The notes beneath the pieces are model-generated. The model saw nothing but the letters and a program-made list of their open reading frames with translations, did no database searches and was not told the origin of the DNA. DNA of 64,000 bases from an uncultured bacterium. GTDB taxonomy: Bacteria; Electryoneota; Tariuqbacteria; Tariuqbacterales; Tariuqbacteraceae. Both the position numbers and the translations under genes were made by a program. Of the stretch, positions 2,081 through 44,586 are shown one piece after another. Position 1 is the first letter of the stretch. Every line of letters starts with the position of its first letter. Location: positions 4,082 to 68,081 of the forward strand of contig CAYQZD010000004.1 in assembly GCA_964421875.1 (NCBI GenBank), written 5' to 3'.

Positions 2081-2139
2081 GATGGTTGGTAATCGGCAGT
2101 CGGCAGTCGGTGGTTGGTAGTCGGTAGTTGGTAGTTGGC
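2081..2139. repeat. tandem heptamer repeat (GGYRGTY x ~8: GATGGTT GGTAATC GGCAGTC GGCAGTC GGTGGTT GGTAGTC GGTAGTT GGTAGTT)
   Basis: Direct reading; strict 7-nt periodicity. Lies just 3' of the stop of minus-strand gene 2155-3477. Confidence 0.8.
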
Positions 2140-2154
2140 ATATAAGGTGGAATC

Positions 2155-3477
2155 TCATTCCACCGTTCTTGTCCGCAAATTCAGGAGGCCGGCGCAGTAT
2201 TTTAATTCTTCGGCAATATCGGCGAAGGCGCAGACCAAATGGTTGCCGAGCAGGTTTTCCCGCAGCCTTTTGCTGGAAGGGATATTTACACGGATTTGGG
2301 TGTGGCAGGTGGGCAGTCGTGGGGAGGAGACTGTCTCGCCGGGGCAAATGCAGATATCATTCAGGTCGTTGCCGATGCGGACGAGGGTAACGATTTCCTT
2401 TAGAGGCAGGGAGACCTGAAGCGAAATCCCCGCGCCGGTCTCGTGGTGAGGCTTAAAGCTATAATCCAGCTTCCTCGGACCCGCCCCGCAGGGAGCGGTG
2501 CAGTGCACTAAATCGAGGTAATCCCCATTGTGAATAATGGGATTCCCCATCCAGAGCAGGTTCCCTCCCAACGCTTTCACCAAAGACATCGTTACAGCGG
2601 CATCAACGTCGCCTTCGCAGGCGGCGATGTAGCGCTCCGAACGGTTCAACGCGCTAAGCGCCAAACATCCCGTAGTCCCCAACCGCGGTATAAGGTCGAA
2701 GCAGGCGAGTGCGAGCCCTTCCGCCTCATACTCCTCCAGCAGTTTCTCCAGCCCGTATAAGACTGCGCAGGCTTTGGTTACGGTTTGCGTGTCGATACTT
2801 TTATTTCCGGAGCCGCCCTCAATCCAGGAGCGGGCGCATCGCGCGGTTTCGGATTGGGGAGCCTCGGCGACTATATCGTAAAGCTCTTCCAAAGCGAGGG
2901 GAAGGATTTCCACGCCTAAGGCTTCTTTGAAACGCTCCGGCTCCCGGCAGCTATTGACCACCCAGGGTTCCGTGGGACCTATCTGCAGAATTCTGCTGTG
3001 ATTCAGGCGCTGAACAGATCGAAATGCTTTACTATAACAGCGCCATTCAACCTCGCTTCCTATCCAGAACACCTTCCGATGTCTCATCCTGAGATGCGCG
3101 TAGAAATCCGTCGAAGCGGGGTGGGCGTTGGCTGAGAGCAGCGCTCCGGCGGTTTCTTCGGGCAAGCCGATTTCCGGGAGGTAAGCGTTGAGCAAAGCTA
3201 TCGATTTGAAATTTTCCGACAGCCGAATCATCCAATTCTGCACTCCCCCGCTGAGCGGCAGGAAAACAGCGTGTTTAGCGCCGGACTGGGAACAGGCAGC
3301 TTCCATCTCATCGTCGGAATGAATTAGATGGAAACGGAGGTTCTCTCCATCTTCCCCCTCGATTATTGCAGAAAATGAGCGCTTAATAACCTCCAGCAAA
3401 CGATTCAATTTGCTTTCCTCGCCCCAGTATCGCGGGGAAGCGAAGGCAAATATATCAAGGGGATATGACGATGGCAT
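2155..3477 (-). CDS. sugar isomerase-like protein (tentatively L-fucose/L-arabinose isomerase family); function uncertain
   Basis: ORF 2155-3510. Preferred ATG at 3477 sits behind an AGGA RBS. About 440 aa with no signal peptide. Family assignment rests on weak recall of fucose-isomerase C-terminal-like motifs (LVHCTAPCGAGPRKLDY). Confidence 0.3.
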   Translation of the reverse strand: MPSSYPLDIFAFASPRYWGEESKLNRLLEVIKRSFSAIIEGEDGENLRFHLIHSDDEMEAACSQSGAKHAVFLPLSGGVQNWMIRLSENFKSIALLNAYLPEIGLPEETAGALLSANAHPASTDFYAHLRMRHRKVFWIGSEVEWRCYSKAFRSVQRLNHSRILQIGPTEPWVVNSCREPERFKEALGVEILPLALEELYDIVAEAPQSETARCARSWIEGGSGNKSIDTQTVTKACAVLYGLEKLLEEYEAEGLALACFDLIPRLGTTGCLALSALNRSERYIAACEGDVDAAVTMSLVKALGGNLLWMGNPIIHNGDYLDLVHCTAPCGAGPRKLDYSFKPHHETGAGISLQVSLPLKEIVTLVRIGNDLNDICICPGETVSSPRLPTCHTQIRVNIPSSKRLRENLLGNHLVCAFADIAEELKYCAGLLNLRTRTVE

Positions 3478-3497
3478 AGTTGTCCTGTATATAAGTT

Positions 3498-3527
3498 TGC
3501 AGGTTGGCAAGTTAGCAAGTTAGCATT
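3498..3527. repeat. tandem octamer repeat (GTTGGCAA GTTAGCAA GTTAGCAT)
   Basis: Direct reading, between genes 3477 and 3874. Confidence 0.6.
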
Positions 3528-3641
3528 AAATGCAGGGCGGGTCATTCAGATCCGCCATTTAAATGTTCCGGCAGGTCTTGCGCGCTGAAGGCGGGTGTGA
3601 ACTGCCAGTCTTCAAGTCTTCAGACCGTATGAATTTAGCTT

Positions 3642-3752
3642 TATGAAGTTATAAGCAGAATTGTCATTCCGGCGTAGCCGGAATCCCTCCGGAAAAGAAG
3701 GATTCTGGCTCGCTGCGCGGCCAGAATGACGCGTTTACTTCATATCGGTAAA
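3642..3752. repeat. MITE-like palindromic element, copy A (~110 bp: outer TATGAAGT...ACTTCATA inverted repeat; inner GTCATTCCGGCG-CAG/TAG-CCGGAATCC ... GGATTCTGGCTCGC..GCGGCCAGAATGAC double hairpin; tail CTTCATATCGGTAAAGTGT)
   Basis: Direct reading. Copies at 9069, 17947, 32155, 35150 and 63148 share 70-100% of this sequence. Confidence 0.8.
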
Positions 3753-3801
3753 GTGTCACGGCAAGTCAAAACATTTTATACAGGTGTACAAGCAAACACC
3801 C

Positions 3802-3860
3802 GGCGGAATAAGATTCCGCCCTACTATCTACCGACCGCCGACTACCAACTACCGACTGCC
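3802..3860. repeat. hairpin GGCGGAAT-aag-ATTCCGCC, then CTA, then tandem heptamers (CTACCGA CCGCCGA CTACCAA CTACCGA CTGCC), immediately 3' of the stop of minus-strand gene 3874-6186
   Basis: Direct reading. The same hairpin sequence recurs at 6282-6300. Confidence 0.8.
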
Positions 3861-3873
3861 TGTCTCCCGCCCT

Positions 3874-6186
3874 TCACTTCAATTCAAGTTCATCCCGCCA
3901 ATACCGGGCTTTGCCCACGCCATACTGGTCGGAACTGCCGTCGAAGGCGAGTCCGAACAGCGAGGGGGCTTGCTCGAAGATGACCTGACCGTTATAAACC
4001 GCTTTTGAAACGTTGACCACGGTGAATTTCAGCCGCTTCCCCGTCCTGACGGTGAAGTAAAAGTCGGCGTTGGTTTCCAAACCGCCGTAAACGATGCGGC
4101 CGGATTCGTAGGTGTATTTGGGGCGGCGGTAATCGCGTACTATGTCCATCCTGAGGTCGCTTTTGAGGCCCACTTTGATGATCTTACCGGAACATTCAAT
4201 TGTTAAAGCCAATCCCGCGTCAAGGGGCTGAGTTTCTAACACGCTAATGCGGTCGAGCCAGCGCGAAGGATTTTCATCCGCCGGATGGGGGATTAAAACC
4301 GTAATGAAACCTATATGCTGGCCGAGTTCGAAATGCTGGGCGGTATACTGGCAGATAGCGTATTCATCCTGATAGTAACGGCGCTCTGGTTCGACCGACT
4401 CGAAGCGGTAATGAGTCTGCGGGAAGTATATCAGTAAACTGTTATCAGTGTCAAGTCCGATGTTCCTCAAAGAATCGTATTGGGTGTCGTACCAATGGTC
4501 TCCTTGCGCGGTAATTTTCCGGGTGTGCCAGAGGTTGGCGGCGGTAAGATAACCTTCCCGGACAGCTTTCAGAATGTCGAAGACGACGAACATTTCGGGA
4601 TTCTTAATATAAACAATCACCCGGTCCCATTGATAGCCCATTTTGTCGTCGAGGAGGCGGGTGCGGGAGTAATCGAATTCCTCAAAGGTGAGGAAATCCA
4701 CTTTTTGGGTGCGGACCTGCCGGTAAGAGCCGGCGTTGCGCATAAATTCCAATACCGGCTGACCCGGAACCGCGGAATGTTCCTTGGTGTCTAAACGGTA
4801 TTCCCCTTCTTTCTGACCAAACCAGATTTTTTCAGGGCGCACACAGAGCCGGTTGTGGAAATAATCGGCGCGGTAAGCCCCGTAAGGCCCCGATGGCATA
4901 TAGTCGCGGTAACCCCCATCGTGGAGCAGGACAGAGCCTTTGTGCATCAGCAGGGCGATGGAATTTTCATCGGAATGGCCGTGTGTCATCTTCTCCTCTT
5001 CCACCGGAATGCCGTCCCGGAGGTAATCGCGGAAGAGCAGACCTCCGTCCCCCTCGTCCCGGTAGTTGAGCAGCATATAGGTCGCTTCACTATCCCAGCC
5101 ATTGCGGAAAACGATTTTCTTACCCTGCACATCCTCCATCACCTCCATGCTCAATTCCTCCGGCGCCTGGGGGATAATATCGTCCGCCGCCCAGTTGTAA
5201 CAGTCGAACAGGATATAAGCTAACCCGGTGCGCCGGACCTGGCTGAAGTCGATGAATTTATCGGCAATGACCGCCGCCGCCCATTTTAAACGGGCGTCGC
5301 GGTAATGCGCCGCAGCGGCTTCAAAGAAGGCGAGAAAGCGGTCCCAGTTGGCGCGCCAGACCGAGTCGCCGAAATCCGGTATCATCCCGTCGGGGCACAT
5401 CAGATAAAGGTAGTATTGCGCGTAGTAATACATTTCCGGAGTTCTGAATAATTCCCTCATCCGCTCTTTGACCTCGGCGTACCCCAGCAGGCTGTAAAGC
5501 CAGATAGCGTTGTAGAGGGAGGCGTCCTCGATTTCCCAATTGCCCCAGTTGTCGAAAGCCAGGGCGCGTTCATAAGCGCGCCAGTTAGGAGCGCGGGGAT
5601 GGTCAGGGAGGGCTTTCACCGCCCAGGCGAGGACTTCGGCGCGCAAGGCGGCGCGGTTCATTGCCCCCCATTCCTGGGACTGCAGGGTATAATCGATGCT
5701 GTGGGCGATGGTCTCTTCTATCTTTTTCCGCTGGGATTTGCTCAAGAGCCCGGATTCCTTCAAGACGCAGTAAGCGCGGATATAGCGCATCGCGGTAAAG
5801 AAATCGGGCAGGGCGGGAACGCCTTGCGTATAATCAGGGCGGAGGGCGGCGGCGTCCGGGGGGAATTCCCGGCGGTAACCGCCGTAGGTGAGCAGAACCT
5901 TTTCCGCGCGGCGGGCGTATTCCTGATTCGATTCCAGTTTATACAGTTCAGCGTAGATGGCAGCCATTTCCAGAAATCGGGATGGTGGGCGGTATCCCCA
6001 GATGGTGTAGGGATTGAATTTTTCGCGCCATGCCTCTTCCAGGGAATCGTAATGTGTCCAGACCCAGCCGGCGGCGGCGCGGGCGAATTCGAGGTATTCC
6101 GCGCGGGGAGTGGGCGCGGGATTTTCCGCTGTTGCGATGGATGATAGCAGCAGTATAATGATAATAATCATCAGTGTATTTCGCAT
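3874..6186 (-). CDS. secreted polysaccharide-lyase-like protein, tentatively heparinase II/III family
   Basis: 770 aa. N-terminal signal peptide (MRNTLMIIIIILLLSSIATA). A large alpha-helical N-terminal half is followed by a beta-rich C-terminal half containing an HGHSD motif. Size and architecture fit a Hepar_II_III-like lyase. Confidence 0.4.
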   Translation of the reverse strand: MRNTLMIIIIILLLSSIATAENPAPTPRAEYLEFARAAAGWVWTHYDSLEEAWREKFNPYTIWGYRPPSRFLEMAAIYAELYKLESNQEYARRAEKVLLTYGGYRREFPPDAAALRPDYTQGVPALPDFFTAMRYIRAYCVLKESGLLSKSQRKKIEETIAHSIDYTLQSQEWGAMNRAALRAEVLAWAVKALPDHPRAPNWRAYERALAFDNWGNWEIEDASLYNAIWLYSLLGYAEVKERMRELFRTPEMYYYAQYYLYLMCPDGMIPDFGDSVWRANWDRFLAFFEAAAAHYRDARLKWAAAVIADKFIDFSQVRRTGLAYILFDCYNWAADDIIPQAPEELSMEVMEDVQGKKIVFRNGWDSEATYMLLNYRDEGDGGLLFRDYLRDGIPVEEEKMTHGHSDENSIALLMHKGSVLLHDGGYRDYMPSGPYGAYRADYFHNRLCVRPEKIWFGQKEGEYRLDTKEHSAVPGQPVLEFMRNAGSYRQVRTQKVDFLTFEEFDYSRTRLLDDKMGYQWDRVIVYIKNPEMFVVFDILKAVREGYLTAANLWHTRKITAQGDHWYDTQYDSLRNIGLDTDNSLLIYFPQTHYRFESVEPERRYYQDEYAICQYTAQHFELGQHIGFITVLIPHPADENPSRWLDRISVLETQPLDAGLALTIECSGKIIKVGLKSDLRMDIVRDYRRPKYTYESGRIVYGGLETNADFYFTVRTGKRLKFTVVNVSKAVYNGQVIFEQAPSLFGLAFDGSSDQYGVGKARYWRDELELK

Positions 6187-6281
6187 TATATTCGGTTTCT
6201 CCGATTTAAATTCGATAAAGTCATCAAGTCAACAAGTCGGCAGTTCGACGAGTCCCCCGCTCGAAGACCACCCTCTTTTCG

Positions 6282-6366
6282 GCGGAATGAGATTCCGCCC
6301 TACAAGCCACCAAGCACCAAGCACCAAGCACCAAGCACCAAGCACCAAGCACCAAGCACCAAGCAC
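6282..6366. repeat. hairpin GGCGGAAT-gag-ATTCCGCC, then CTA, then (CAAGCAC/CCAAGCA) x 8 tandem heptamers, immediately 3' of the stop of minus-strand gene 6378-6824
   Basis: Direct reading; eight perfect copies of CACCAAG. Confidence 0.85.
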
Positions 6367-6377
6367 TATTCACCAGT

Positions 6378-6824
6378 TCACCGCTTCACCGCCACCATCA
6401 TAATTTCCACCAGAGCGTCGGCGGGGATACGGGACACTTCAAGCACGGCGCGAGCAGGATAATCCCCTTTGAAAAATTCGGTGTAGATGGTGTTGAATTC
6501 GGGATAGCGCTCCATATCGTTCACAAAAACCTGGCACTGGACCACGTCATTCAGGCTGAAGCCGGCGGTTTCGAGGACTGCTTGCTGGTTTTTCAGCGCC
6601 TGGCGGGCTTGAGCGGCGAAGCCTTCGGCCAGTTTGCCGGTGGCGGGGTCGAGGCCTATTTGTCCGGCGAGGTAGAGGGTGTTCCCCACCCTGACAGCCT
6701 GGGAATAGGGACCGATGGCGGCGGGCGCATTGGGCGATACGATGATTTCGCGGGATACGACCTCCCGCTCGTCGCAACTATAAATTAAAAGTGAGGCAAC
6801 AAATATGGGAATAAGTCTATTCAT
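6378..6824 (-). CDS. ridA: RidA/YjgF/TdcF family protein (reactive enamine/imine deaminase) with lipoprotein signal
   Basis: 148 aa. Lipobox LIYSC. Motifs AIGPYSQAV and YPARAVLEVSRIP are characteristic of RidA. Confidence 0.8.
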   Translation of the reverse strand: MNRLIPIFVASLLIYSCDEREVVSREIIVSPNAPAAIGPYSQAVRVGNTLYLAGQIGLDPATGKLAEGFAAQARQALKNQQAVLETAGFSLNDVVQCQVFVNDMERYPEFNTIYTEFFKGDYPARAVLEVSRIPADALVEIMMVAVKR

Positions 6825-7129: not shown

Positions 7130-8737
7130 GTGAGCGACGAAAACACTCAAACAGCAGCGAAAGAGCCTAAGGGGAAACGCGTTTTTGGGCGGACTTTCTG
7201 GTGCCTCAACGGCATCGAAATGTGGGAACGGCTGGCGTATTTCGGGATGCGCAGCGTGGTTCCGGTTTACATCATGCAGGCGGACAATCCCGGAGGACTG
7301 CATTTCACAGCGGCCGATAAAGGGATAATCTACCTGTTCTGGTTTCTGTGTCAATCGGTTTTACCGATGTTCACCGGGGGGTATGCTGACAGGTACGGCT
7401 ACAAAAAAACTCTGTTCGTGTCGGTGACGATGAACATCATCGGCTACATAATGATGGCGAACCTGCGGACTTTTCCCGGTTTTTTCGCGGGAGTGCTGGT
7501 GCTGGCCTGCGGTACGGCATTATTCAAACCGAGCCTTCAGGGATCGCTGGCTCAGAACCTGACAAAGGCCAATTCCTCGGTCGGATGGGGAATATTTTAC
7601 TGGGTGGTGAACATTGGCGCGGCCATCGGACCGTTTTTAGCTGATGTGATATTGGTAAACGCTTATACTCACAATCCTGACGGATTCTTTTTCAAGATTT
7701 TTGGCGCGGTCCGTTCGCAGTCTTCCTGGCGTTCGCTGTTTACAGCATCGGCGGTGATAACCTCATTCAATTATCTGATGATGCTGACCTATAAGGACGT
7801 CCCATCGGGAGCGTCGAAGAAGGAAAATCCACTGCAGGTATTTGTCCTCACCATCAAGAATATCGTGGAACCGCGCTTGATCGCGTGGCTGCTGATTATG
7901 TCCTGCTTCTGGCTTATGATGTATCAGGTTTGGGATTTGCATCCCAATTTCATAGAGGATTGGATAGACAGTTCGGCGCTGGCGACTCATCTGCCCTGGA
8001 AAATGGAGACCGACCGCGGGGTGATGGTTCCTCAGCATATAATGCTCAATCTCAATGCGCTCTGGATAATCTGCTTCATGGTGCCGATATCCTGGATGGT
8101 CAGGCGGATGCGGGTATTGGAGTGTATGATATTCGGGATGGCGCTGGCGACAGCCGGGACTATAGTCAGCGGTTTCACCAGTGTGGGCTCGATTTTCCTT
8201 TTGGGGATAGTCTTCTTCTCCACCGGCGAGATGATGACCGGTCCTAAAAAGAACGAATACCTGGGATTGATAGCCCCTCCGGGGAAGAAAGGATTATTTT
8301 TAGGCTATGTGAACATCCCTGTGGGCATCGGAGGCGGATTCGGCGCCATGCTGGCGGGTTTGCTGTATGGACGCTACGGCGAGAAGGCGACTCTGGCGAT
8401 GAAATACATGGCTGAGAAGACGCAGTTCGGTTTGTCCAAAGGCTGGGACGGAAAAATATCTTCGCTGGAAAGCACATTGGGAGTAACGCGGTCCGGTGTG
8501 TTCGATGAAATGGGACAAATAACAGAGCCGGGAGCTTTCCATAAGCTGCTGGAGGTGTTAAGACTGGAGACCGCGAATCCGGATTTAAGCGCTGTAGAAG
8601 TTACGCGTCTGCTGTGGGACACATATAATCCGCAGTTTCACGTTTGGATTCCCTTCGCCGCCATCGGCATGATAGCCATCATTGCATTGGTGATATTCAG
8701 CCGGATGGCGCGGAAGTGGTCGGATATGGATGCGTGA
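7130..8737 (+). CDS. POT/PTR2 family proton-dependent oligopeptide transporter (MFS)
   Basis: 535 aa. GTG start with an AGGAAG RBS. N-terminal EMWERLAYFGMRS matches the POT ExxERFxYYG motif. Multiple TM segments. Confidence 0.7.
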   Translation: MSDENTQTAAKEPKGKRVFGRTFWCLNGIEMWERLAYFGMRSVVPVYIMQADNPGGLHFTAADKGIIYLFWFLCQSVLPMFTGGYADRYGYKKTLFVSVTMNIIGYIMMANLRTFPGFFAGVLVLACGTALFKPSLQGSLAQNLTKANSSVGWGIFYWVVNIGAAIGPFLADVILVNAYTHNPDGFFFKIFGAVRSQSSWRSLFTASAVITSFNYLMMLTYKDVPSGASKKENPLQVFVLTIKNIVEPRLIAWLLIMSCFWLMMYQVWDLHPNFIEDWIDSSALATHLPWKMETDRGVMVPQHIMLNLNALWIICFMVPISWMVRRMRVLECMIFGMALATAGTIVSGFTSVGSIFLLGIVFFSTGEMMTGPKKNEYLGLIAPPGKKGLFLGYVNIPVGIGGGFGAMLAGLLYGRYGEKATLAMKYMAEKTQFGLSKGWDGKISSLESTLGVTRSGVFDEMGQITEPGAFHKLLEVLRLETANPDLSAVEVTRLLWDTYNPQFHVWIPFAAIGMIAIIALVIFSRMARKWSDMDA

Positions 8738-8832
8738 TGATGGTGGTTAGTGGTTGGTGGTTGGTGGTTGGTGGTTGGTGGTTGGTGGTTGGTGAATGGT
8801 GATTGGTGGTTGGTGGATAGTGGATGGTGGTC
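8738..8832. repeat. (TGGTGGT)n-type tandem heptamer tract, ~13 units with variants (TAGTGGT, TGAATGG, TGATTGG, GGATAGT), starting at the stop codon of gene 7130-8737 and followed by a terminator hairpin
   Basis: Direct reading. Confidence 0.85.
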
Positions 8833-8882
8833 ATTGTTCAGAAGTTGATTGCTAATAATTATAGATGAGTGATAAATGTAAA

Positions 8883-8912
8883 GGCGGGAATCAATCCCGC
8901 CTTTTTTGTTTG
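8883..8912 (+). terminator. rho-independent terminator (GGCGGGAA-tcaa-TCCCGCC followed by TTTTTTGTTTG)
   Basis: Perfect 8-bp GC-rich stem followed by a T-run, downstream of the POT gene and its heptamer repeat tract. Confidence 0.7.
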
Positions 8913-9068
8913 TACTTCAGCAATCTGCGTGAATATAACTTGATTATTAAGCGAAAATACATATATTATCTGAAAATGTTGAGCGATACTAGGGAATAAT
9001 CTAAAACACGCCTCTATTTTTTCTAAAATAGGGAATATCACTATAGCCTTTACAAGCAATTACCTATA

Positions 9069-9140
9069 TCGTCATTCCGGCGCAGCCGGAATCCCTCCGG
9101 GAAAGAAGGATTCTGGCTCGCTTCGCGGCCAGAATGACGC
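9069..9140. repeat. MITE-like element copy B (core double hairpin only)
   Basis: GTCATTCCGGCGCAGCCGGAATCCCTCCGGGAAAGAAGGATTCTGGCTCGCTTCGCGGCCAGAATGACG. Confidence 0.8.
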
Positions 9141-9231
9141 TTGCGCATTGTATAGATTAAGTTATACCACATCTTGAAATTATATACGTTAACTCCATAA
9201 TATTAAACAAATTGGGGGGAGGAGATTTGAT

Positions 9232-11253
9232 ATGAAGTTTAATACTTATTTACGTTTACTTATTGTTATCGCTCTTTGCAGCGTCGCAGTACTGGTGACT
9301 TCCTGCGGGAAAAAGGAAGTGGCGCTAATCCCCCGCGATGTGATTTTCGGCAATCCGGAGAAGGTATCGCCCCGGCTTTCCCCGGACGGGACGATGCTGG
9401 CTTACGTCGCGCCCTACGAAGGGGTGCTGAATGTCTGGGTCAGGACCATCGGCGAGGAGGACGACCGGGCGGTCACCAAGGACGACAACCGCGGCGTCCG
9501 GCGCTATTTTTGGGCGGAGGACAATCTGCGCATCCTCTACCTGCAGGATGTGGGCGGCAACGAGAATTGGCGGCTTTACGGGATTCACCTGGAGACCGAT
9601 TCGGTTAAGGATTACACCCCGTTCGATGAGGTTCAGGTTCGGATAGTGGACCGCAACAAGCATTTCCCCAACGAACTCTTGATATCGATGAACAAGGAGA
9701 ATATCCAGTTTCACGATGTTTATCATTTGGATTTGACCAGCGGGGAATTGAAGATGACGGCTCGGAATCCGGGCAATTACGTGGGCTGGGTGACGGACGC
9801 CGAGTTCAAGGTTCGGGGAGCTTTAGCCGCCAACGCTGAAGGGGGAATGGAGCTGATGGTTCGGGATAACGAGGAATCGACCTGGGAGAAGAAAATCGTC
9901 TGGGATCAGGACAACAGCCTCACCAGCGGGCCGGTGTGTTTCACTTTAGACGGCAAATCGATGATACTCATCGACTCGCGCGAGGTGAATGCGGGGAGGC
10001 TTATCAAGTATGAAATCAAGACTGGCGCCATTAGAATCATCGCCGAGGACCCCACTTACGACGTCAGCGACGCGATGATACATCCCGACACCTACGAGGT
10101 GCAGGCGGTGGCTTTCACCAAGGAGCGTGAGGTGTGGACCGTTCTGGACAGCGCTATCAAGGCGGATTTCGAAGTCATTTCCAAGCTGGACCGGGGTGAT
10201 TACGGCGTTAGCAGCCGGGACAACGCTGACAAGACCTGGCTGGTCTATTTCCGCGCCGACAATGGGCCTATCGCCTATTACGCTTACGACCGCGAGAGCA
10301 AAGCGGGGAAATTCCTGTTCCACCACCGTTCGGAATTGAACAATTATCTATTAGCGCCGATGGAGCCGATTTCTTTCGAATCCCGCGACGGCTTCACCAT
10401 TCACGGTTACATCACTTATCCTCCGGGCAAGGGCCGCAAGAACCTCCCGCTGGTGCTGAATGTTCATGGAGGACCTTGGTACCGGGACACCTGGGGCTAC
10501 TATCCCGAAGCGCAGTGGCTGGCGAACCGGGGCTATTGCTGCCTACAGGTTAATTTCCGAGGATCCACCGGCTACGGTAAGGAATTTTTGAACGCGGGCA
10601 ACAAGGAATGGGGCGGTAAAATGCAGAACGACCTCACCGACGCGGTGGAATGGGCAGTAGCTCAAGGTATCGCCGATGCGGAGCAGGTGGCGATATACGG
10701 CGGCTCCTACGGAGGCTACGCCGCGCTTGTGGGAGCGACCTTTACGCCGGACTTATACTGCTGCGCGGTGGACATAGTGGGACCCTGCAACCTCATCACC
10801 TTCATTCAGACCATTCCGCCTTACTGGATGCCGCTGATGAGCGTTTTTAAGAAGCGTGTAGGGGATTTGGAGACAGAAGAGGAAATGCTGTGGGAACGTT
10901 CGCCGCTGTCCAAGGCGGACAATATCAAAATACCGATGCTGATTGCGCAGGGCGCTAACGACCCTCGGGTAAATCAGGCGGAATCGGAACAGATTGTGAA
11001 GGCAATGGCGGACAAAGGGCTCGATTACGAATACCTGTTGTTCCCGGATGAAGGGCACGGTTTCGCTAAACCCGACAACCGCCTGGCTTACTATGCGTCG
11101 GCGGAACAGTTCCTGGCTAAACACCTGGGCGGCCGCTATGAAGAAGCGGGGCCTGAAGTTCAGAAAAAACTGGACGAGGTGAGGAGCGAACCTGCGGAGA
11201 CAGAAGAAGCAGAAGCCGAGGAAGAGACAGCAGAGGTTCCGGAAGAGGAATAG
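9232..11253 (+). CDS. S9 family serine peptidase (prolyl oligopeptidase/dipeptidyl aminopeptidase-like) lipoprotein
   Basis: 673 aa. Lipobox VTSCG. N-terminal beta-propeller-like region, C-terminal alpha/beta hydrolase with the GGSYGG nucleophile motif and DEGHGF. Strong RBS (GGGGGAGGAG). Confidence 0.85.
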   Translation: MKFNTYLRLLIVIALCSVAVLVTSCGKKEVALIPRDVIFGNPEKVSPRLSPDGTMLAYVAPYEGVLNVWVRTIGEEDDRAVTKDDNRGVRRYFWAEDNLRILYLQDVGGNENWRLYGIHLETDSVKDYTPFDEVQVRIVDRNKHFPNELLISMNKENIQFHDVYHLDLTSGELKMTARNPGNYVGWVTDAEFKVRGALAANAEGGMELMVRDNEESTWEKKIVWDQDNSLTSGPVCFTLDGKSMILIDSREVNAGRLIKYEIKTGAIRIIAEDPTYDVSDAMIHPDTYEVQAVAFTKEREVWTVLDSAIKADFEVISKLDRGDYGVSSRDNADKTWLVYFRADNGPIAYYAYDRESKAGKFLFHHRSELNNYLLAPMEPISFESRDGFTIHGYITYPPGKGRKNLPLVLNVHGGPWYRDTWGYYPEAQWLANRGYCCLQVNFRGSTGYGKEFLNAGNKEWGGKMQNDLTDAVEWAVAQGIADAEQVAIYGGSYGGYAALVGATFTPDLYCCAVDIVGPCNLITFIQTIPPYWMPLMSVFKKRVGDLETEEEMLWERSPLSKADNIKIPMLIAQGANDPRVNQAESEQIVKAMADKGLDYEYLLFPDEGHGFAKPDNRLAYYASAEQFLAKHLGGRYEEAGPEVQKKLDEVRSEPAETEEAEAEEETAEVPEEE

Positions 11254-11331
11254 CGCCGAACAGGCAATTAATTGTAATACAGTAATTTACCATTAGTTTG
11301 CTGTGATTGCAGGAAAATAGAGAGAGTTAAA

Positions 11332-11433: not shown

Positions 11434-12798
11434 TTGACAGACAACGAAGGGGACAAGAAAGACCTCAGCCTTAAAGAATCGCTGAGTATTTTATTCAGGG
11501 CTTCCAAGGGATTCTGGCTGGTAAATATGATAAACTTCGGGGACGGGATAGCGTATTTCGGGATACTGACACTGCTGACCCGTTTCTTGGGAACACGACT
11601 GGATTTGCCGGACACTACTACGGGCCTCAGCGTGTCGATGTATACGGGGATGGTGACGTTGTTTATGTTCGGCGGGGGATTTGTATCGGACAAGCTGGGA
11701 GTGCGGCGGGCTTTGGGCTGGTCGCTGTTCGTGATACTGCTGGGGCGGATACTGCTGGCGGGGGCGCCGATGGGATTGGAGGGGGGATTCGCCAAGTATT
11801 CGGCTTGGCTGGGATTATTGCTGGCGGCTTTGGGGACGGGAGTGCTGCAGCCGGCTCTATACGCCGGAGTCAAGGAGTACACCGATTCGCGCACCGCCAC
11901 CATCGGATATGGTCTGCTCTACTCTATTATGAACTTAGGGATTGTGGCGGAAACCTTTGTCTCGCCTTTCATCCGCACCGGAGGCACCTTTCTCAACCTG
12001 GGATTTACTGAAATCATCGGGCTGGGCTGGGGGATTGACGGGGTGTATTGGACGATGGTATCGGTGACTGGGCTGATGCTGTTCCTGCATCTTTCACTGT
12101 TCACACGGCGGGTGGAGGCTACCGACCGGCAGGTGGTTGAGGAGCCGCAGGTGGATAAACCTCAGTTTACGTTGAAGCAGCGGATAATGGAGCTGCCGTT
12201 TTTGGACCCGCATTTCATGTTTTTCATCTTCATTCTTCTGCCGGTCAGAACTATTTTCGCGCACGATTTCCTGACGATGCCGGACTATATTTTCCGGGAG
12301 TTTCCGGCGGAGGTGGGGGCGAAATTCGAATGGATACACGGTCTCAATCCGTTGATAATCGTGATATTCGTCCCGACCATCGCGGCTGCTACGCGCAAGG
12401 TGAAGATAATCAATATGATGATTATCGGGACCTTAATCACGGCGACCATACCGTTCATTTTAACGCCGGGACCGAGGCTTTGGACGCTGCTCACTTATGT
12501 TATCATCTACTCGCTGGGGGAAGCGGTTTGGTCATCGCGTTTCCTGGAGTATGTGGCGGATATGGCGCCCACGGGGAGGGTGGGGGCTTATATGGGGCTG
12601 GCGGGGATACCGTGGTTTATGGCGAAGTTCACCACGGGCTTTTATTCGGGATCGATGCTGGAGAAGTTCGTTCCGGAGAACGGTCCTCACGACAGCGGGA
12701 CGATGTGGGGGATATACGCCTGCATTGCGTTGATAAGCCCGATATGCCTGATTTTAATGAGAAAGTGGCTGGAAAAGGGGCGGCATACCAGTGGGTGA
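11434..12798 (+). CDS. MFS transporter, POT-like (degenerate PTR2 signature)
   Basis: 454 aa with about 12 TM helices. GGGFVSDKLGVRRALGWSLFVILLG resembles the PTR2_1 signature. The annotated start is TTG at 11434; a downstream ATG (MINFGDG) would truncate TM1. Confidence 0.6.
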   Translation: MTDNEGDKKDLSLKESLSILFRASKGFWLVNMINFGDGIAYFGILTLLTRFLGTRLDLPDTTTGLSVSMYTGMVTLFMFGGGFVSDKLGVRRALGWSLFVILLGRILLAGAPMGLEGGFAKYSAWLGLLLAALGTGVLQPALYAGVKEYTDSRTATIGYGLLYSIMNLGIVAETFVSPFIRTGGTFLNLGFTEIIGLGWGIDGVYWTMVSVTGLMLFLHLSLFTRRVEATDRQVVEEPQVDKPQFTLKQRIMELPFLDPHFMFFIFILLPVRTIFAHDFLTMPDYIFREFPAEVGAKFEWIHGLNPLIIVIFVPTIAAATRKVKIINMMIIGTLITATIPFILTPGPRLWTLLTYVIIYSLGEAVWSSRFLEYVADMAPTGRVGAYMGLAGIPWFMAKFTTGFYSGSMLEKFVPENGPHDSGTMWGIYACIALISPICLILMRKWLEKGRHTSG

Positions 12799-12837
12799 TT
12801 TTAGTGGTTGGTGGTTGGTGGTTGGTGATTAGTGTTT
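12794..12837. repeat. tandem heptamers (GTGATTT TAGTGGT TGGTGGT TGGTGAT TAGTGTT TGGTGGT) overlapping or following the stop of gene 11434-12798
   Basis: Direct reading; same TGGTGGT family as 8738-8832. Confidence 0.75.
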
Positions 12838-12921
12838 GGTGGTTATGTCGACTTGTGCGGTAGAAACAAACTTTTCGTTGCCACAGAATCGCTGTCCCAT
12901 AATGTTCGTAATTTTTGTAGA

Positions 12922-16690: not shown

Positions 16691-17313
16691 TGGGGGACAA
16701 AATGTTAAATAGTTTTCCAATTCTGCTGACCGCCGCCCTCTTGACAGCGGCGGCTTTCGGGGGTGAAATCGTCTTCACGGTGGAGCCGGGCGACTACCAG
16801 AACGTAACATTTCACTCCAAAGCGCCGCTGGAATCATTCGAAGGTGTGACAAACCAAATTTTCGGCAGCATTCAGGTGAATCTGGACAGCCTGGCGGGAG
16901 CGTCAGCGGTAATCAAGGTGGATATGCAGGCGCTGGATACCGGTATCAATCTGCGAAATAAGCATATGCGCGACAACCATCTGCATACGGCGGATTATCC
17001 CTTCGCGGAATTCAGTTTAAAGCGGATTGAAGGCGCGGGGAACCTTAAAGAAGGGGAAGCGGTCGAGTTCAACGGCATTGGCGATTTTACACTGCACGGC
17101 GTCACGCGGGAGATTTCGGTTCCACTGAGGGTAAAATTCCTGACAGATGGGAGGGACACTCCGTTGGAAACGGCGGGTAACGCTCTTCATATCAAGGGAG
17201 AATTCCAGGTGAAATTGTCCGACTATGAGGTTCCGCGTCCGAAGTTTTTGGTGATGAAACTGAACGAAGTCCAGCGGGTGACGATTGAGTTGTGGGCGAA
17301 GGGGGGTGAGTAG
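16690..17313 (+). CDS. YceI-family periplasmic protein (polyisoprenoid/quinone-binding lipocalin-like)
   Basis: Signal peptide. VTFHSKAPLESFEGV matches the YceI signature. Alternative ATG at 16702 lies behind a GGGGGA RBS. Confidence 0.75.
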   Translation: MGDKMLNSFPILLTAALLTAAAFGGEIVFTVEPGDYQNVTFHSKAPLESFEGVTNQIFGSIQVNLDSLAGASAVIKVDMQALDTGINLRNKHMRDNHLHTADYPFAEFSLKRIEGAGNLKEGEAVEFNGIGDFTLHGVTREISVPLRVKFLTDGRDTPLETAGNALHIKGEFQVKLSDYEVPRPKFLVMKLNEVQRVTIELWAKGGE

Positions 17314-17314
17314 G

Positions 17315-17715: not shown

Positions 17716-17838
17716 TGCGACTTTCGATTTGTGATTTGCGATTTGCGATTTGCGATTTGGGAAAGGGGGATTTGATATTTTGGGGTCGATTGTTTAGATT
17801 AGATAGACTTGCGATTTGTGATTTGTGATTTGTGATTG
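17716..17838. repeat. two blocks of (GATTTGC/GATTTGT)n tandem heptamers (17716-17760 and 17808-17838) after the stop of gene 17315-17713, followed by a G-rich tract and a TTAAGCGGATT/AATCCGCTTAA inverted repeat
   Basis: Direct reading. Confidence 0.8.
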
Positions 17839-17946
17839 GGGAATGGATGGGGATGGTGGTGGGAACAATTGAGATTCACAGGGAATTAAGCGGATTAAGC
17901 AGATTAGGAGGCTGAAAAATCCGCTTAATTGGGTAACATTTACTGA

Positions 17947-35149: not shown

Positions 35150-35252
35150 GAAATTGTCATTCCGGCGCAGCCGGAATCCTTCCGGAGAAGAGGGATTCTG
35201 GCTTGCTTCGCAGCCAGAATGACGTATACGCTTCATATCAGTAAAGTGTTAC
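35150..35252. repeat. MITE-like element copy D (full length, with CTTCATATCAGTAAAGTGT tail), between permease paralog 3 and the acyl-CoA dehydrogenase gene
   Basis: AAATTGTCATTCCGGCGCAGCCGGAATCCTTCCGGAGAAGAGGGATTCTGGCTTGCTTCGCAGCCAGAATGACGTATACGCTTCATATCAGTAAAGTGT. Confidence 0.8.
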
Positions 35253-42873: not shown

Positions 42874-44218
42874 GAATTTCAAACTAAATTGCGCTATTCG
42901 AGTGATATTGGCGGGGGCGTCGGTCAGCCTTTTCTTCTATCTTGTTTTCCAAACCTCGCTCTATATGACGGCGGTGATTGTGGGATTACTGGCACTGTAT
43001 CAGTTTTACGCCATATTCCGGTATATAGAAAAAACCAATGTTATTTTAGCGCGTTTTCTGGATTCAATCAAGTACTCCGATTTTACGCAGAGTTTTACCA
43101 CCGGTCAGAAAGGAACCGCTTTCGAGCGGCTTCATCAAGCTTTCAACGGTGTGATTACAGAATTCAAACGGGCTCGCAGCGAAAAGGAGGAACATTTTCA
43201 TTACCTCCAGACTGTGGTTCAGCATGTAGGCGTGGGATTGATCGCTTTCAACGCCAAAGGAGAGATTCAACTCATCAATAACGCTGCCAAGCGTCTATTG
43301 AAAATCCCTTCTCTGAAAAACATCAGCCAGTTATCGGCGCTAAGCGCCGAATTATCGGAAAAAATCCTCGAAATGAAGGGCGATAGCCGCGAACAGGTTA
43401 AAATCCAGCGAGAAAGGCAGTCGCTTCTGTTATCGCTGCAAGCCACTAAATTCGCTCTGCATCAGGAGGGTTATACACTGGTCTCGCTGCAGAATATCCG
43501 TTGGGAGTTGGAGGAGAAGGAGATGGAAGCCTGGCACAGTTTAATCAGGACTTTGACGCATGAGATAATGAACTCTATCGCCCCCATATCTTCGCTGGCT
43601 TCCACCGCTAAGGAATTAATGTTGAGGCGGGAAGCTGAAGGCAATGAAAACGCCGGGGAAGATGAGCTGAAGGATACAATAACCGCCTTGAAAACGATAG
43701 AGAAACGCAGTGAAGGATTGATGGCGTTCGTGGAAAACTATCGGAAACTCTATCGTATTCCCAAACCCGAATTCGAGATATTCCCGGCGCAGGATTTATT
43801 CGGGAGGGTTATCCATTTAATGCGGGAAGACATTGAAAGCAAGGGCATCGGTTTCAGTTATAAAATCGACCCTGAATCGCTGGAACTTACCGCGGATCCC
43901 GCTCTGATTGAACAAGTGATGATTAACCTGCTTAAGAATTCGGTAGAGGCTATCGGCCATCGCAAGGATTCAGCCATAGAAATATCGGCGGAAATCGACG
44001 AGATTGGCTCACCTATAATAATCGTCAAGGACAACGGTCCCGGTATCCAGCCGAACAATCTGGAGCAAATCTTTATCCCCTTTTTCACCACCAAACCTGA
44101 CGGTTCGGGTATAGGCTTAAGTTTATCCAAACAGATAATGCGCCTGCACGAGGGCGCCTTGGATGTATCCTCTTTCCCCGGCGCCGACACCGTTTTCACG
44201 TTGCGCTTCAGGCAGTAG
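42863..44218 (+). CDS. sensor histidine kinase (membrane-anchored; HisKA + HATPase_c)
   Basis: Two N-terminal TM helices. H-box LTHEIMNSIAPI. N, G1 and G2 boxes (VKDNGPGI, GSGIGLSL). Overlaps the regulator gene by 11 nt. Confidence 0.85.
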   Translation: MVYKNFKLNCAIRVILAGASVSLFFYLVFQTSLYMTAVIVGLLALYQFYAIFRYIEKTNVILARFLDSIKYSDFTQSFTTGQKGTAFERLHQAFNGVITEFKRARSEKEEHFHYLQTVVQHVGVGLIAFNAKGEIQLINNAAKRLLKIPSLKNISQLSALSAELSEKILEMKGDSREQVKIQRERQSLLLSLQATKFALHQEGYTLVSLQNIRWELEEKEMEAWHSLIRTLTHEIMNSIAPISSLASTAKELMLRREAEGNENAGEDELKDTITALKTIEKRSEGLMAFVENYRKLYRIPKPEFEIFPAQDLFGRVIHLMREDIESKGIGFSYKIDPESLELTADPALIEQVMINLLKNSVEAIGHRKDSAIEISAEIDEIGSPIIIVKDNGPGIQPNNLEQIFIPFFTTKPDGSGIGLSLSKQIMRLHEGALDVSSFPGADTVFTLRFRQ

Positions 44219-44327
44219 CCGCGGCTGGATGCCGGGATAGAGTCCGCTGGTTGATCAGGCGAGGTAAGGAATTCTCCGGGTTTCTTGACAATATCGATAG
44301 AATTTCGTATATTGTGTTCGCCATTGA

Positions 44328-44400
44328 CGCGGGGTGGAGCAGTTGGTAGCTCGTTGGGCTCATAACCCAGAGGTCGCAGGTTCGAATCCTGCCCCCGCTA
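44328..44400 (+). tRNA. tRNA-Met (CAT), initiator-type (fMet-like)
   Basis: CGCGGGGTGGAGCAGTTGGTAGCTCGTTGGGCTCATAACCCAGAGGTCGCAGGTTCGAATCCTGCCCCCGCTA is nearly identical in architecture to E. coli tRNA-fMet: unpaired position 1:72 (C1 x U72), three consecutive G:C pairs in the anticodon stem, anticodon CAT. The 3' CCA is not encoded. Confidence 0.85.
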
Positions 44401-44504
44401 CAATAGGAGGCCGGTTTATAGTAGCCGGTCTCTTGCATTTCAGTTATTCAAAAACGGTCTCTATTAGTCAAGCCCCTGCAGTACAGTACAGAATTTAAGT
44501 AATA

Positions 44505-44533
44505 AAATCCCCGCCGGATTCCGGCGGGGATTT
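44505..44533 (-). terminator. rho-independent terminator for the T9SS cargo gene (perfect palindrome AAATCCCCGCCGGAA/TTCCGGCGGGGATTT followed by a T-run on the minus strand)
   Basis: 14-bp perfect inverted repeat. The minus-strand reading is followed by TTTTATT. Confidence 0.7.
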
Positions 44534-44540
44534 CTCATTC

Positions 44541-44586
44541 GAAACCTGTGACTTGAGGCTCGCAACTCGAATCTCGCGACTCGCAG
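44541..44586. repeat. tandem heptamers ending in CGA on the coding (minus) strand (GCTGCGA GTCGCGA GATTCGA GTTGCGA GCCTCAA GTCACAG), between the stop of gene 44587-47121 and its terminator palindrome
   Basis: Direct reading of the reverse complement. Confidence 0.7.

Follow-up and report, generated by a model that had tools for sequence, protein, structure and literature searches.

Tandem heptamers of cyanobacteria, the STRR sequences, were reportedly described by Mazel and colleagues in 1990 (also cited in PMC4692102) as STRR1 (CCCCAGT), STRR2 (TTGGTCA) and STRR3 (CAACAGT). REP and BIME elements are inverted repeats, not tandem heptamers. Heptanucleotide 'long SSRs' occur in scattered bacterial genomes (Mrazek, Guo & Shah 2007, as relayed in PMC4692102 and PMC4679880); GGGAATC in Xanthomonas and GGGGA(C/T)T in Nostoc are heptamer repeats that prefer stop codons (Rehm et al. 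2015, PMC4692102); and TAACTGA direct repeats are found in Beggiatoaceae, some cyanobacteria and Bacteroidetes (MacGregor 2015, PMC4679880). Here we describe heptamer arrays of this already known class, stop-codon preference included, in one more lineage. The window, the whole 64-kb stretch of DNA analysed, comes from an uncultured, sediment-type bacterium of the FCB group; candidate division LCP-89 is its nearest named relative, and it is not a cyanobacterium.

Period-7 arrays begin at stop codons

TRF and two lag-autocorrelation scans returned seven strong period-7 arrays in the window, where composition-preserving shuffles gave an expectation of 0.02. Two degenerate arrays, 3821-3862 and 44541-44586 (lag-7 identity 0.66 and 0.59, with lag 7 clear above all other lags), bring the count to nine, of 4-13 copies each; other lags (4-6 and 8-13) yielded 0-2 arrays per lag. 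The non-random heptamer periodicity remarked on in the initial annotation is thus real; two 'weaker cases' listed with it, at 11254-11300 and 19876-19940, have lag-7 identities of 0.23 and 0.31, which is background. The arrays and their hairpins are as follows.

2085-2138, minus strand: strong heptamer array, ~7.5 units (plus-strand GGTAGTC/GGCAGTC/GGTGGTT; sense strand C/A-rich), 16 nt past the stop (2155-2157) of gene 2155-3477(-)
2146-2164: hairpin GGTGGAAT-CTC-ATTCCACC, a variant of the GGCGGAAT hairpin family
3821-3862, minus strand: degenerate heptamer array, 6 units (sense TCGGTAG/TTGGTAG/TCGGCGG), 11 nt past the stop of gene 3874-6186(-)
3802-3820: hairpin GGCGGAAT-AAG-ATTCCGCC, adjoining array 3821-3862, without a U-tract
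6300-6366, minus strand: strong heptamer array, ~9.5 units (sense CTTGGTG, perfect in 8 copies), 11 nt past the stop of RidA-like gene 6378-6824(-)
6281-6299: hairpin GGCGGAAT-GAG-ATTCCGCC, adjoining array 6300-6366, with the stem of 3802-3820
8738-8831, plus strand: strong heptamer array, 13 units (GGTTGGT/TTGGTGG), directly 3' of the stop (8735-8737) of MFS gene 7130-8737(+)
8880-8910, plus strand: canonical intrinsic terminator (10-bp GC-rich stem and T-run), 48 nt past array 8738-8831
12799-12845, plus strand: strong heptamer array, ~6 units (TTGGTGG), without a hairpin, occupying the entire 47-nt gap from an MFS stop (12796-12798) to the ATG (12846) of an isochorismatase-family gene
17716-17760, plus strand: strong heptamer array A, 6 units (TGCGATT), 2 nt past the stop of PSCyt1-domain gene 17285-17713(+)
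17806-17838, plus strand: strong heptamer array B, 4-5 units (GATTTGT, differing from the unit of array A by one substitution), 92 nt past the same stop
17884-17930, plus strand: 13-bp hairpin AATTAAGCGGATT...AATCCGCTTAATT, 45 nt past array B, without a U-tract
26482-26522, plus strand: strong heptamer array, 5.5 units (TAGCTGC/AAGCTGC), with the TAG stop of T9SS-tailed gene 25225-26484(+) inside its first unit
26527-26578, plus strand: two hairpins past array 26482-26522 in a convergent spacer, GGCGG...CCGCC (26527-26549) and TTCCCA...TGGGAA (26557-26578)
44541-44586, minus strand: degenerate heptamer array, ~6 units (sense CTGCGAG/TCGCGAG/ATTCGAG/TTGCGAG), beginning at the next base after the stop (44587-44589) of T9SS-tailed gene 44587-47121(-)
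44504-44533: canonical, bidirectional-looking terminator AAAATCCCCGCCGG-ATT-CCGGCGGGGATTT, 7 nt past array 44541-44586 (z = -5.7)

Most arrays begin close to a stop codon, as had been claimed: eight of the nine start no more than 16 nt away. When arrays were placed at random in intergenic DNA, 20,000 trials averaged 0.49 such arrays and never exceeded 5 (P < 5e-5). Beyond the window, another 9.5 kb from this organism holds two more arrays, both flush with stop codons, so that 10 of 11 are stop-anchored overall; a single array touches a start codon. The proposed order of stop, array and hairpin stands at six of eight gene ends (3874-, 6378-, 8737+, 17713+, 26484+ and 44587-), and at four of those six the array takes up the whole stop-to-hairpin spacer. 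It breaks down at 2155(-), where the hairpin at 2146-2164 spans the stop codon and precedes the array, and at 12798(+), where the array fills the gap and no hairpin is present. Anchoring to hairpins is weaker (≤7 nt in 5 of 9 arrays, with three arrays having no hairpin within 45 nt or none), and the idea that slippage was seeded at terminators finds no support here, anchoring to stops being the steadier of the two. Only the hairpins at 8880-8904 and 44504-44533 carry a canonical intrinsic-terminator U-tract. The arrays themselves are mostly unstructured in RNA folds.

Units and internal structure

Variants of TYGGYRN make up the units of five of the nine window arrays, so the claim that units are locus-specific is only partly true: several unrelated units do exist, but five arrays share one. 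Array cores are homogeneous and edge units degenerate, with matches per unit of [5,7,7,7,7,7,7,7,6,3] at 6300-6369 and [5,6,7x6,5,6,7,5,6,4] at 8738-8835, and TRF also detected superperiods of 14 and 21 nt. The sense strand is at least 67% G+T in 7 of 11 arrays and C-rich in one. No motif is common to all arrays, GGG runs occur in none, GG is nearly absent from those at 17716, 17806, 26482 and 44541, and neither the STRR units nor TAACTGA occurs in tandem here.

Recovery in independent assemblies

We compared the window with Logan contigs from 3-4 SRA runs, whose adjacent accession numbers suggest that probably one population was sampled; overall identity was 99.96-100%. Four arrays were recovered base-for-base in contigs of this independent assembler: 2085-2138 (100% identity in L121/L122), 3821-3862 (in L118, a contig from 4 samples), and 17716-17760 and 17806-17838 (both in L113). 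Recovery was partial for 6300-6366 (first 35 nt in L118, with a contig break within perfect repeat), 12799-12845 (both halves, in L113-L116) and 44541-44586 (first 18 nt in L119/L120, where the contigs end within the array). Breaks in the Logan unitigs fall within the longest perfect arrays, at window positions 6337, 12805/12831 and 44569, so that a single assembly supplies the exact copy number of 6300-6366 and the whole of 8738-8831 and 26482-26522. The check for length polymorphism suggested in the initial annotation returned no copy-number difference among these few contigs from 3-4 runs.

Arrays in relatives

An MFS orthologue of 84% identity lacks a downstream array, and contigs of this orthologue carry other arrays (TGTTGAG x26, AAGTGTC x7 and AAATTCA x9). 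For a 770-aa gene, orthologous 3' ends in relatives bear different heptamers or none. Among loci sampled from many phyla, 7 was the commonest array period and arrays were concentrated in few lineages; a patchy distribution of heptamer arrays is also attributed to Mrazek 2007 in the accounts given by PMC4692102 and PMC4679880.

Origin of the arrays

On balance, we think it probable that the arrays are heptanucleotide simple-sequence repeats produced by slippage and retained where the transcript is not translated, in the spacer from stop codon to terminator. Slipped-strand mispairing in replication would add and remove copies of short direct repeats, with 7 nt as the strongly favoured step; a published hypothesis ascribes this step to the ~7 nt of DNA that the polymerase keeps at its active site. 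Coding sequence would presumably lose non-triplet arrays, as would promoters and 5' UTRs in which spacing counts; in the stop-to-terminator spacer, where we find them, they would persist, and survival there would leave arrays flush with the stop and often reaching the hairpin. Replication slippage, already raised in the initial annotation, is made plausible by the homogeneous cores, degenerate edges, 14/21-nt superperiods and turnover of units in relatives, and we agree that these are not ordinary transposable repeats. Because units vary by locus and turn over in relatives, no sequence-specific reader is needed. The further suggestion of a contingency locus is disfavoured by the position of the arrays 3' of stops, outside coding sequence and promoters. 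As mostly unstructured sequence, usually G/T-rich and C-poor on the sense strand, the arrays may have the likely side-effect of lengthening the stop-to-hairpin distance; in E. coli, a greater distance is reported to raise terminator efficiency by taking the hairpin clear of the terminating ribosome's footprint (PMC4824070).

Several observations sit less easily with slippage. A purely neutral filter gives no obvious reason for arrays to cling to the stop codon and avoid terminator-to-promoter DNA, which is equally unconstrained and of which the intergenic region 8738-9231, for one, has ~200 nt. The shared TYGGYRN family and the prevailing G+T richness may point to selection or shared ancestry instead of slippage at each locus independently. 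The few contigs, probably of one population, showed no copy-number polymorphism, the signature of slippage in progress, and the tie of arrays to stop codons is looser in relatives.

It is possible, though we consider it unlikely, that the arrays are 3' UTR elements under positive selection: variable-length unstructured spacers tuning termination, read-through and mRNA stability for each gene, by setting the ribosome-to-hairpin distance or by protecting the 3' end. Their location exactly between stop and hairpin at six loci, their filling of the spacer at four, their mostly unstructured RNA folds, a stop-proximal bias above random intergenic placement and the E. coli terminator data all speak for such a role, but array 12799-12845 lacks a terminator, array 2085-2138 comes after its hairpin and the array is absent at the orthologous gene end of the 84% relative. 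Since any unstructured sequence could act as a spacer, the strict 7-nt period would also go unexplained.

We are more doubtful that a REP/BIME/MITE-like mobile or recombining palindromic element spread part of the set, moving a module [G/T-rich TYGGYRN array -> GGYGGAAT-CTY-ATTCCRCC-G] between gene ends, with the arrays diverging afterwards. The two same-sequence hairpins previously pointed out are indeed there, with identical GGCGGAAT-N3-ATTCCGCC stems at 3802-3820 and 6281-6299, and a third variant lies at 2146-2164. What lends weight to copying is that the asymmetric loop has one and the same orientation towards the array at all three loci, of which the one at 2085-2164 is inverted relative to its gene, and that the array-hairpin junction GTAG-GGCGGAAT is identical at two loci. 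The hairpin at 6281-6299 is moreover part of a ~50-nt element that recurs at ~9600-9650 of contig L122, with a ~30-nt flank, AAAAGAGGGTGGYCTTYGAG...GGGGGACT, common to window 6250-6280 and L122 ~9600-9630; the two extra arrays in L122 are bordered by degenerate hairpin copies, and a second palindromic family has four copies in the same spacers. The GGCGGAAT hairpin was not found at any of the relatives' loci, as expected for a young species-specific repeat. Yet four or five arrays (8738, 12799, 17716/17806, 26482 and 44541) lie away from the shared hairpin, units at loci without it are unrelated (TGCGATT, TAGCTGC and CTGCGAG), no transposase or RAYT gene was seen in the window and no target-site duplications were identified.

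It seems very unlikely that the arrays are multivalent sites for a sequence-specific protein, whether a TRAP/HutP-like ring protein on RNA or a nucleoid or regulator protein on DNA, or that G-rich arrays fold into G-quadruplexes. The ring proteins TRAP and HutP read NAG triplets at fixed spacing, and several units offer NAG or TGG once per 7 nt (TCGGTAG, CTGCAAG, CTGCGAG and TTAGTGG), but about one-third of 7-nt units would contain AG by chance. TTGGTGG arrays resemble the two-tetrad thrombin aptamer GGTTGGTGTGGTTGG. There is precedent for G4-forming heptamers, a G4 having been proposed for GGGAATC repeats (PMC4692102); against this, no array has GGG, four have almost no GG, one is C-rich on the sense strand, no motif is found in all arrays and units are not conserved at orthologous positions. 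That assembly error created the arrays, by mis-joining or collapsing repeats in a contig built from metagenome reads, is extremely improbable and largely refuted, the unitig breaks notwithstanding: four arrays recur base-for-base in independently assembled contigs from 3-4 runs, relatives carry the same kind of array in unrelated JGI and NCBI assemblies, and arrays of 40-90 nt are shorter than a typical read.

Comparison with known systems

Two palindromic families here, those of GGCGGAAT and ATTCTGGC...GCCAGAAT, behave much like the REP/BIME elements of enterobacteria and pseudomonads, commonly described as species-specific short palindromes in spacers at gene 3' ends that form mosaics with other motifs; here no RAYT transposase was seen, and the heptamer arrays are an added component without a BIME counterpart. 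STRR sequences are likewise heptamers in tandem outside coding sequence, frequently at the 3' ends of genes or between cistrons, with several unit families per genome, but the host here is not a cyanobacterium, STRR units are never in tandem, and the commonest unit, TTGGTGG/TTGGTAG, is merely similar to the TTGGTCA of STRR2. TAACTGA repeats are likewise intergenic heptamer direct repeats whose sporadic distribution reaches FCB-group bacteria, with strain indels in 7-nt steps and mixed heptamer assemblages in some spacers; they consist of a single unit mostly a few nucleotides upstream of start codons, whereas our arrays follow stops (PMC4679880). The repeats of Rehm et al. are closer, being intergenic heptamer arrays of 2-26 units that prefer stop codons and are rarer between divergent genes; their length and sequence differ among close relatives, and they show no tie to particular gene functions. 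Those genomes have one dominant G-tract unit and a four-copy preference fitting G4 formation (PMC4692102); the arrays here have several unrelated units, no GGG runs and no four-unit preference. As relayed in the two later papers, the long SSRs of Mrazek and colleagues match in their head-to-tail 7-nt units, in the over-representation of period 7 relative to all other non-triplet periods, in their intergenic position and patchiness across phyla, and in being ascribed to polymerase slippage. To judge from those accounts, the FCB/LCP-89-related lineage lies outside the original surveys, and what sets it apart is that several unit families occur within 64 kb, packed tightly between stop and hairpin.

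Period-7 arrays in the window

A lag-autocorrelation scan of the window (threshold at least 20 of 28 self-matches, with composition-preserving shuffles as the null) recovered seven regions at lag 7, compared with 0.02 per shuffle run. Lags 4-6 and 8-13 yielded 0-2 regions each, lag 14 recovered the same seven regions, and under an alternative scoring scheme period 7 was the sole period with arrays. Period 7 also exceeds other non-triplet periods both here and in relatives of the organism. We delimited nine arrays, at a density of about one per 7 kb; in the two most degenerate, all lags other than 7 scored well below the lag-7 identity. The heptamer-array feature is thus real and statistically solid. 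Two weaker cases from the initial annotation, 11254-11300 and 19876-19940, are unconfirmed because their lag-7 identities (0.23 and 0.31) are at background level.

Period-7 arrays in the window, with calls by Tandem Repeats Finder (TRF)
2085-2138: period-7 array, TRF 2088-2135
3821-3862: degenerate array, lag-7 identity 0.66, TRF 3821-3860 (listed as a 21-nt superperiod)
6300-6366: period-7 array, TRF 6303-6366 (9 copies, 98% matches)
8738-8831: period-7 array, TRF 8741-8831 (13 copies)
12799-12845: period-7 array, TRF 12804-12844
17716-17760: period-7 array, TRF 17716-17759
17806-17838: period-7 array, TRF 17809-17837
26482-26522: period-7 array, TRF 26483-26520
44541-44586: degenerate array, lag-7 identity 0.59

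The window belongs to a 70,753-nt NCBI contig, and Logan contigs from SRR24302412, SRR24302418 and SRR24302423 match it at 99.96-100% identity. These contigs span 2085-2138, 3821-3862, 17716-17760 and 17806-17838 with identical copy numbers, and they enter 6300-6366, 12799-12845 and 44541-44586 before breaking. Because four arrays were reproduced in Logan assemblies of three SRA runs, we rejected the assembly-artefact reading that had been raised initially. Independent assemblies support the arrays save for 8738-8831 and 26482-26522, which no independent contig overlaps, and the copy number of 6300-6366; these rest on one assembly. Wherever arrays were spanned, copy number was constant across contigs of 3-4 runs, and contigs broke in the longest arrays. 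Near-identical sequence came only from Logan unitigs, whose SRA runs carry adjacent accession numbers and in which copy number does not vary; among other candidates for a strain comparison, the best reached 71% identity (genome contigs) and 74% (metagenomes).

Arrays are anchored at stop codons

Gene positions were taken from a greedy ORF map, in which most of the neighbouring genes are backed by Pfam and NCBIfam matches. All nine arrays are intergenic, and eight begin 0-16 nt from the stop codon of a gene pointing toward the array (16, 11, 11, 0, 0, 2, 0 and 0 nt, in window order); the ninth, 17806-17838, is a second array 92 nt past the stop also served by 17716-17760. Random placement in the 7.7 kb of intergenic DNA put a mean of 0.49 arrays within 16 nt of such a stop, with a maximum of 5 in 20,000 trials, confirming the stop-codon anchoring noted from the sequence alone. 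A start codon is touched by one array of the nine, 12799-12845, because that array occupies all 47 nt separating two co-directional genes. One Logan contig from the same organism, 100% identical to window positions 1-3692, runs 9.5 kb further and holds two more arrays in a single convergent spacer, one directly at each of its two stop codons, so that 10 of 11 arrays are stop-anchored in total.

The genes beside the arrays encode MFS transporters, a RidA-like protein, a cytochrome-domain protein, T9SS-tailed proteins and hypothetical proteins. The idea that the arrays are contingency loci failed a test for phase-variation membership: simple sequence repeats (SSRs) of that kind lie in a coding region or between promoter elements, go with surface or virulence genes and switch expression by copy number, whereas these arrays come after stop codons. 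Where the MFS gene meets its array, a tandem in-frame stop (TGA TGA) occupies 8735-8740, and the stops at 12796-12798 and 26482-26484 sit inside unit variants that recur later in their own arrays (GGTGATT and TAGCTGC). From these sequences, arrays may have supplied or overwritten native stop codons.

Internal anatomy and unit sequences

Arrays contain 4-13 copies, and the distribution does not peak at 4. In the long arrays, core units are perfectly identical and the edges degenerate: matches per 7-nt unit run [5,7,7,7,7,7,7,7,6,3] in array 6300-6366 and [5,6,7,7,7,7,7,7,5,6,7,5,6,4] in array 8738-8831, and two other arrays give [4,7,7,7,5,6] and [5,7,7,7,5]. Superperiods of 14 or 21 nt occur in some arrays. 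A uniform core with a degraded edge is what should be left by repeated expansion and contraction through slippage, together with point-mutation decay at the borders.

The initial annotation held that units differ between loci, which is true in part. Several arrays carry variants of one TYGGYRN family separated by 1-2 substitutions, namely TTGGTGG (8738, 12799), CTTGGTG (6300) and TCGGTAG/TTGGTAG/TCGGCAG (3821, and 2085 on the + strand), whereas TGCGATT/GATTTGT, TAGCTGC and CTGCGAG are unrelated to it. Read on the sense strand of the gene they adjoin, most arrays (7 of 11) have at least 67% G+T and at most 14% C, and 2085-2138 is C-rich. Neither GGG runs nor tandem TAACTGA, STRR1-3, GGGAATC or GGGGAYT units occur in any array; TAACTGA is present as four single copies. 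Three candidates for a unifying motif (NAG per 7 nt, G-tracts and all-frame stop codons) were considered, and none is valid for every array. With no motif shared throughout, it is unlikely that the arrays serve one sequence-specific binder or have a general G-quadruplex role.

Hairpins and palindromic elements

A terminator consensus scan across the whole window showed no enrichment over shuffles, so hairpins were judged locus by locus, by RNA folding of each 3' region. The order stop, array, hairpin was found at six gene ends: 3874(-), 6378(-; the RidA-like gene), 8737(+), 17713(+), 26484(+) and 44587(-). Of the two exceptions, the gene ending at 2155(-) has a hairpin (2146-2164) that straddles the stop codon, with the array beyond it, and the gene ending at 12798 has no hairpin. 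The layout proposed initially is therefore a good description of most loci, not of all. A canonical intrinsic terminator (stem plus U-tract) was found only at 8880-8910 and 44504-44533; the U-tract is missing at the GGCGGAAT hairpins and at 17884-17930 and 26527-26549.

Two of the hairpins had been called identical, and GGCGGAAT-N3-ATTCCGCC is indeed exact at 3802-3820 and 6281-6299, with a two-mismatch variant at 2146-2164 and looser relatives elsewhere. The generalized form GGYGGAAT-N3-ATTCCRCC has seven matches in the window (three close, four looser) against 0.58 expected. Its asymmetric loop reads CTY in the array-to-hairpin direction in all three close copies, a polarity kept at 2085-2164 although the module there is inverted relative to its own gene. 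A second palindromic element, ATTCTGGC-N10-GCCAGAAT, is present in four copies against 0 expected. Both elements are short, repeated, extragenic, species-specific imperfect palindromes, as REP/BIME elements are; neither is present in any relative's locus, and no REP-associated tyrosine transposase (RAYT) was seen within ~76 kb of genome.

Copies of the second palindrome, CGTCATTCTGGC-N10-GCCAGAATCCYTCTTYTCCGG (~45 nt, asymmetric flanks), all four intergenic
3702-3727
9110-9135
17964-17989
35195-35220

Three of these four copies sit between an array-plus-hairpin and the gene that follows it, and Logan contigs break at or within the element. The GGCGGAAT hairpin at 6281-6299 is a piece of a longer repeat, comprising the hairpin plus AAAAGAGGGTGGYCTTYGAG...GGGGGACT (window 6250-6300). 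A degenerate copy of this long repeat lies at 9600-9650 of Logan contig L122, in the convergent spacer outside the window, which also carries the decamer ATTCGTGTTC in three copies (9704-9737). A further pair of hairpins shares a conserved loop end: GGCGG-ATC-TGAATGAC-CCGCC at 3536-3556, upstream of an octamer array, and GGCGG-TTCGG-TGAATGAC-CCGCC at 26527-26549, directly downstream of a heptamer array.

Other features of the window

Period-8 arrays occur at 3493-3525 and 6214-6250 (- strand), and also at 6369-6392 and at 30-75 of locus L123. Two of the octamers precede start codons, TGCTAACT (four copies) by 16-48 nt (ATG at 3477) and YYGACTTG (three copies) by 32-56 nt (ATG at 6186). GGTGAAxx-type octamers run across the final codons and the stop of two genes, the RidA-like gene and a PBP gene that lies just beyond the window. 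Octamers may be a separate class of repeat, less frequent than the heptamers and with its own preferred position.

A tRNA was the only match in an Rfam search of the window. A 541-nt stretch without an ORF (1614-2154), upstream of an NMT1-like ABC substrate-binding gene (468-1613, - strand), was suspected of being a riboswitch or leader from its length and a GC-rich segment, and had no Rfam match even at E<=1. Unrelated to the repeats, bacterial-microcompartment shell genes (PF00936 BMC; 55486-55959 and 62768-63073) flank a cluster of T9SS-tailed beta-helix proteins and methyltransferases.

Arrays in relatives and other phyla

The window encodes T9SS C-terminal sorting domains, ADOP-type permeases, a Planctomycete-cytochrome domain and sigma-54 regulators. 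For the MFS transporter at 7130-8737, the best named relative is candidate division LCP-89 bacterium B3_LCP (77% identity), from a phylum within the FCB group, and JGI contigs reach 84%. A cyanobacterial origin, prompted by the resemblance to STRR repeats, was rejected on the T9SS sorting domains, ADOP permeases, PSCyt1 domain and LCP-89 affinity.

No array follows the stop of the 84%-identical MFS orthologue. The contigs of this relative (28 kb) hold eight other period-7 arrays whose units differ from those of the window, including TGTTGAG x26, TGAGTGT x10 and AAGTGTC x7, along with a weaker AAATTCA x9 tract; several arrays lie 3-7 nt past stop codons and two lie near start codons. One 1.36-kb intergenic region (L049 4002-5362; JGI Ga0370284_10000084) is full of arrays, with AAGTGTC x7 flush with a stop, a decamer x3.4, TGTTGAG x26 (181 nt, 97% matches) and GTCGGTT x5, and spurious ORFs of 40-163 aa were called across such arrays.

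We compared sixty metagenome loci with orthologues of a 770-aa hypothetical gene (55-74% identity). Period 7 was the commonest, accounting for 17 of 27 arrays, most of them on a few contigs. Synteny around the gene breaks down among relatives, which limits the comparison to the 3' end of the gene itself. Heptamer-like tracts of unrelated units follow the orthologous stop in four closer loci (L056, L057, L059 and L061) and one distant locus (L094), and are absent in most other relatives, including nearly all distant ones. Among 47 loci from many phyla, chosen on unrelated grounds, period-7 arrays were almost confined to two close relatives and three Vulcanimicrobiota contigs, and were absent from about 40 others. 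Taken together, these surveys indicate a lineage-patchy trait with a constant period and turnover of sequence.

The three Vulcanimicrobiota contigs (bacterium ER1/ER2; L028, L029 and L030, included as peptidase homologues) carry 17 period-7 arrays in 46 kb, with units including CGTGACG, CGTCACG, TCACTTT, TCACGAC and CAGTGAC and several arrays back to back within a single spacer (L030 17376-17578). The ER1/ER2 lineage appears to be heptamer-rich, of which we found no mention in the heptamer-repeat literature consulted for this comparison.

Origin and maintenance of the arrays

The arrays combine strict 7-nt periodicity, uniform cores bordered by degenerate edges, stop anchoring, frequent abutment of a hairpin and unit turnover between relatives. 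Replication slippage with a preferred 7-nt step would most likely generate them. Selection would purge them from coding sequence and spacing-sensitive 5' regions. The spacer between stop and terminator, which is transcribed and not translated, is where they could survive and might even be slightly favoured. Terminator efficiency in E. coli is reported to rise when the terminator is moved away from the stop codon (PMC4824070).

Two partial rivals are less likely than slippage followed by purging: positive selection for a spacer or 3' UTR role of the arrays, and spread of an array-plus-hairpin module by a REP/BIME-like process. Both draw on the excess of stop-flush positions over neutral placement, the TYGGYRN family and the common hairpin polarity, which count for the two jointly. 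We think it improbable that the 7-nt step, stop anchoring and patchy distribution across phyla (cyanobacteria, Xanthomonas, Beggiatoaceae, some Bacteroidota, Vulcanimicrobiota and the LCP-89-like lineage) reflect a dedicated process in place of ordinary slippage; in that case the arrays, along with the species-specific hairpin, would act as tunable ribosome-terminator spacers. Candidates for such a process could be a repeat-generating activity coupled to transcription or translation end, or a horizontally transferable factor.

Comparison with known repeat classes

Cyanobacterial STRR families, described by Mazel in 1990, are reportedly the oldest example of the heptamer class, and to our knowledge nobody has so far explained the 7-nt step, lineage restriction or role of heptamer arrays. 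Heptanucleotide repeats are the most abundant long-SSR class in many prokaryotic genomes, and ~7 nt has been proposed as the DNA stretch interacting with the polymerase, favouring 7-nt slippage (Mrazek et al. 2007, as cited in PMC4692102 and PMC4679880). Among the traits of that class, head-to-tail 7-nt copies beyond chance, a period-7 excess and a non-coding location are found here. A further trait is copy-number change in 7-nt steps between strains; the contigs that span arrays here, which probably sample one population, have identical copy numbers. Host and unit sequence differ. The arrays are not STRR sensu stricto, since tandem STRR1 CCCCAGT, STRR2 TTGGTCA and STRR3 CAACAGT are lacking and the host is not a cyanobacterium. 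TAACTGA arrays, known from Beggiatoaceae, cyanobacteria and five Bacteroidetes, lie mostly upstream of start codons and show 7-nt indels between strains (MacGregor 2015, PMC4679880); here that unit is not found in tandem and one of nine arrays is at a start codon. GGGAATC (Xanthomonas) and GGGGAYT (Nostoc) arrays are intergenic, rare between divergent genes and variable between close relatives, with function unknown (Rehm et al. 2015, PMC4692102), and a 2022 preprint on Nostoc describes the heptamer role as still undefined and speculates upon it. The window arrays lack the G-tracts of at least three and the four-unit preference of this G-quadruplex type, but share its stop-proximal position on the coding strand (8 of 9 within 16 nt).

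Short-read assemblies break at arrays of this kind, and gene calls across them contain spurious ORFs. Comparing the Vulcanimicrobiota and LCP-89-like lineages could help to find the replisome or repair feature that is responsible. Knowledge of heptamer arrays dates from 1990 and that of their over-representation from 2007; the window adds a phylogenetically remote, uncultured FCB-group lineage in which they are unusually dense, strongly stop-anchored and combined with a species-specific hairpin. With the window, a bacterial repeat class that is known but unexplained gains a new lineage, and the case strengthens the view that a stop-codon-proximal position is a general property of the class rather than a quirk of G4-forming units.
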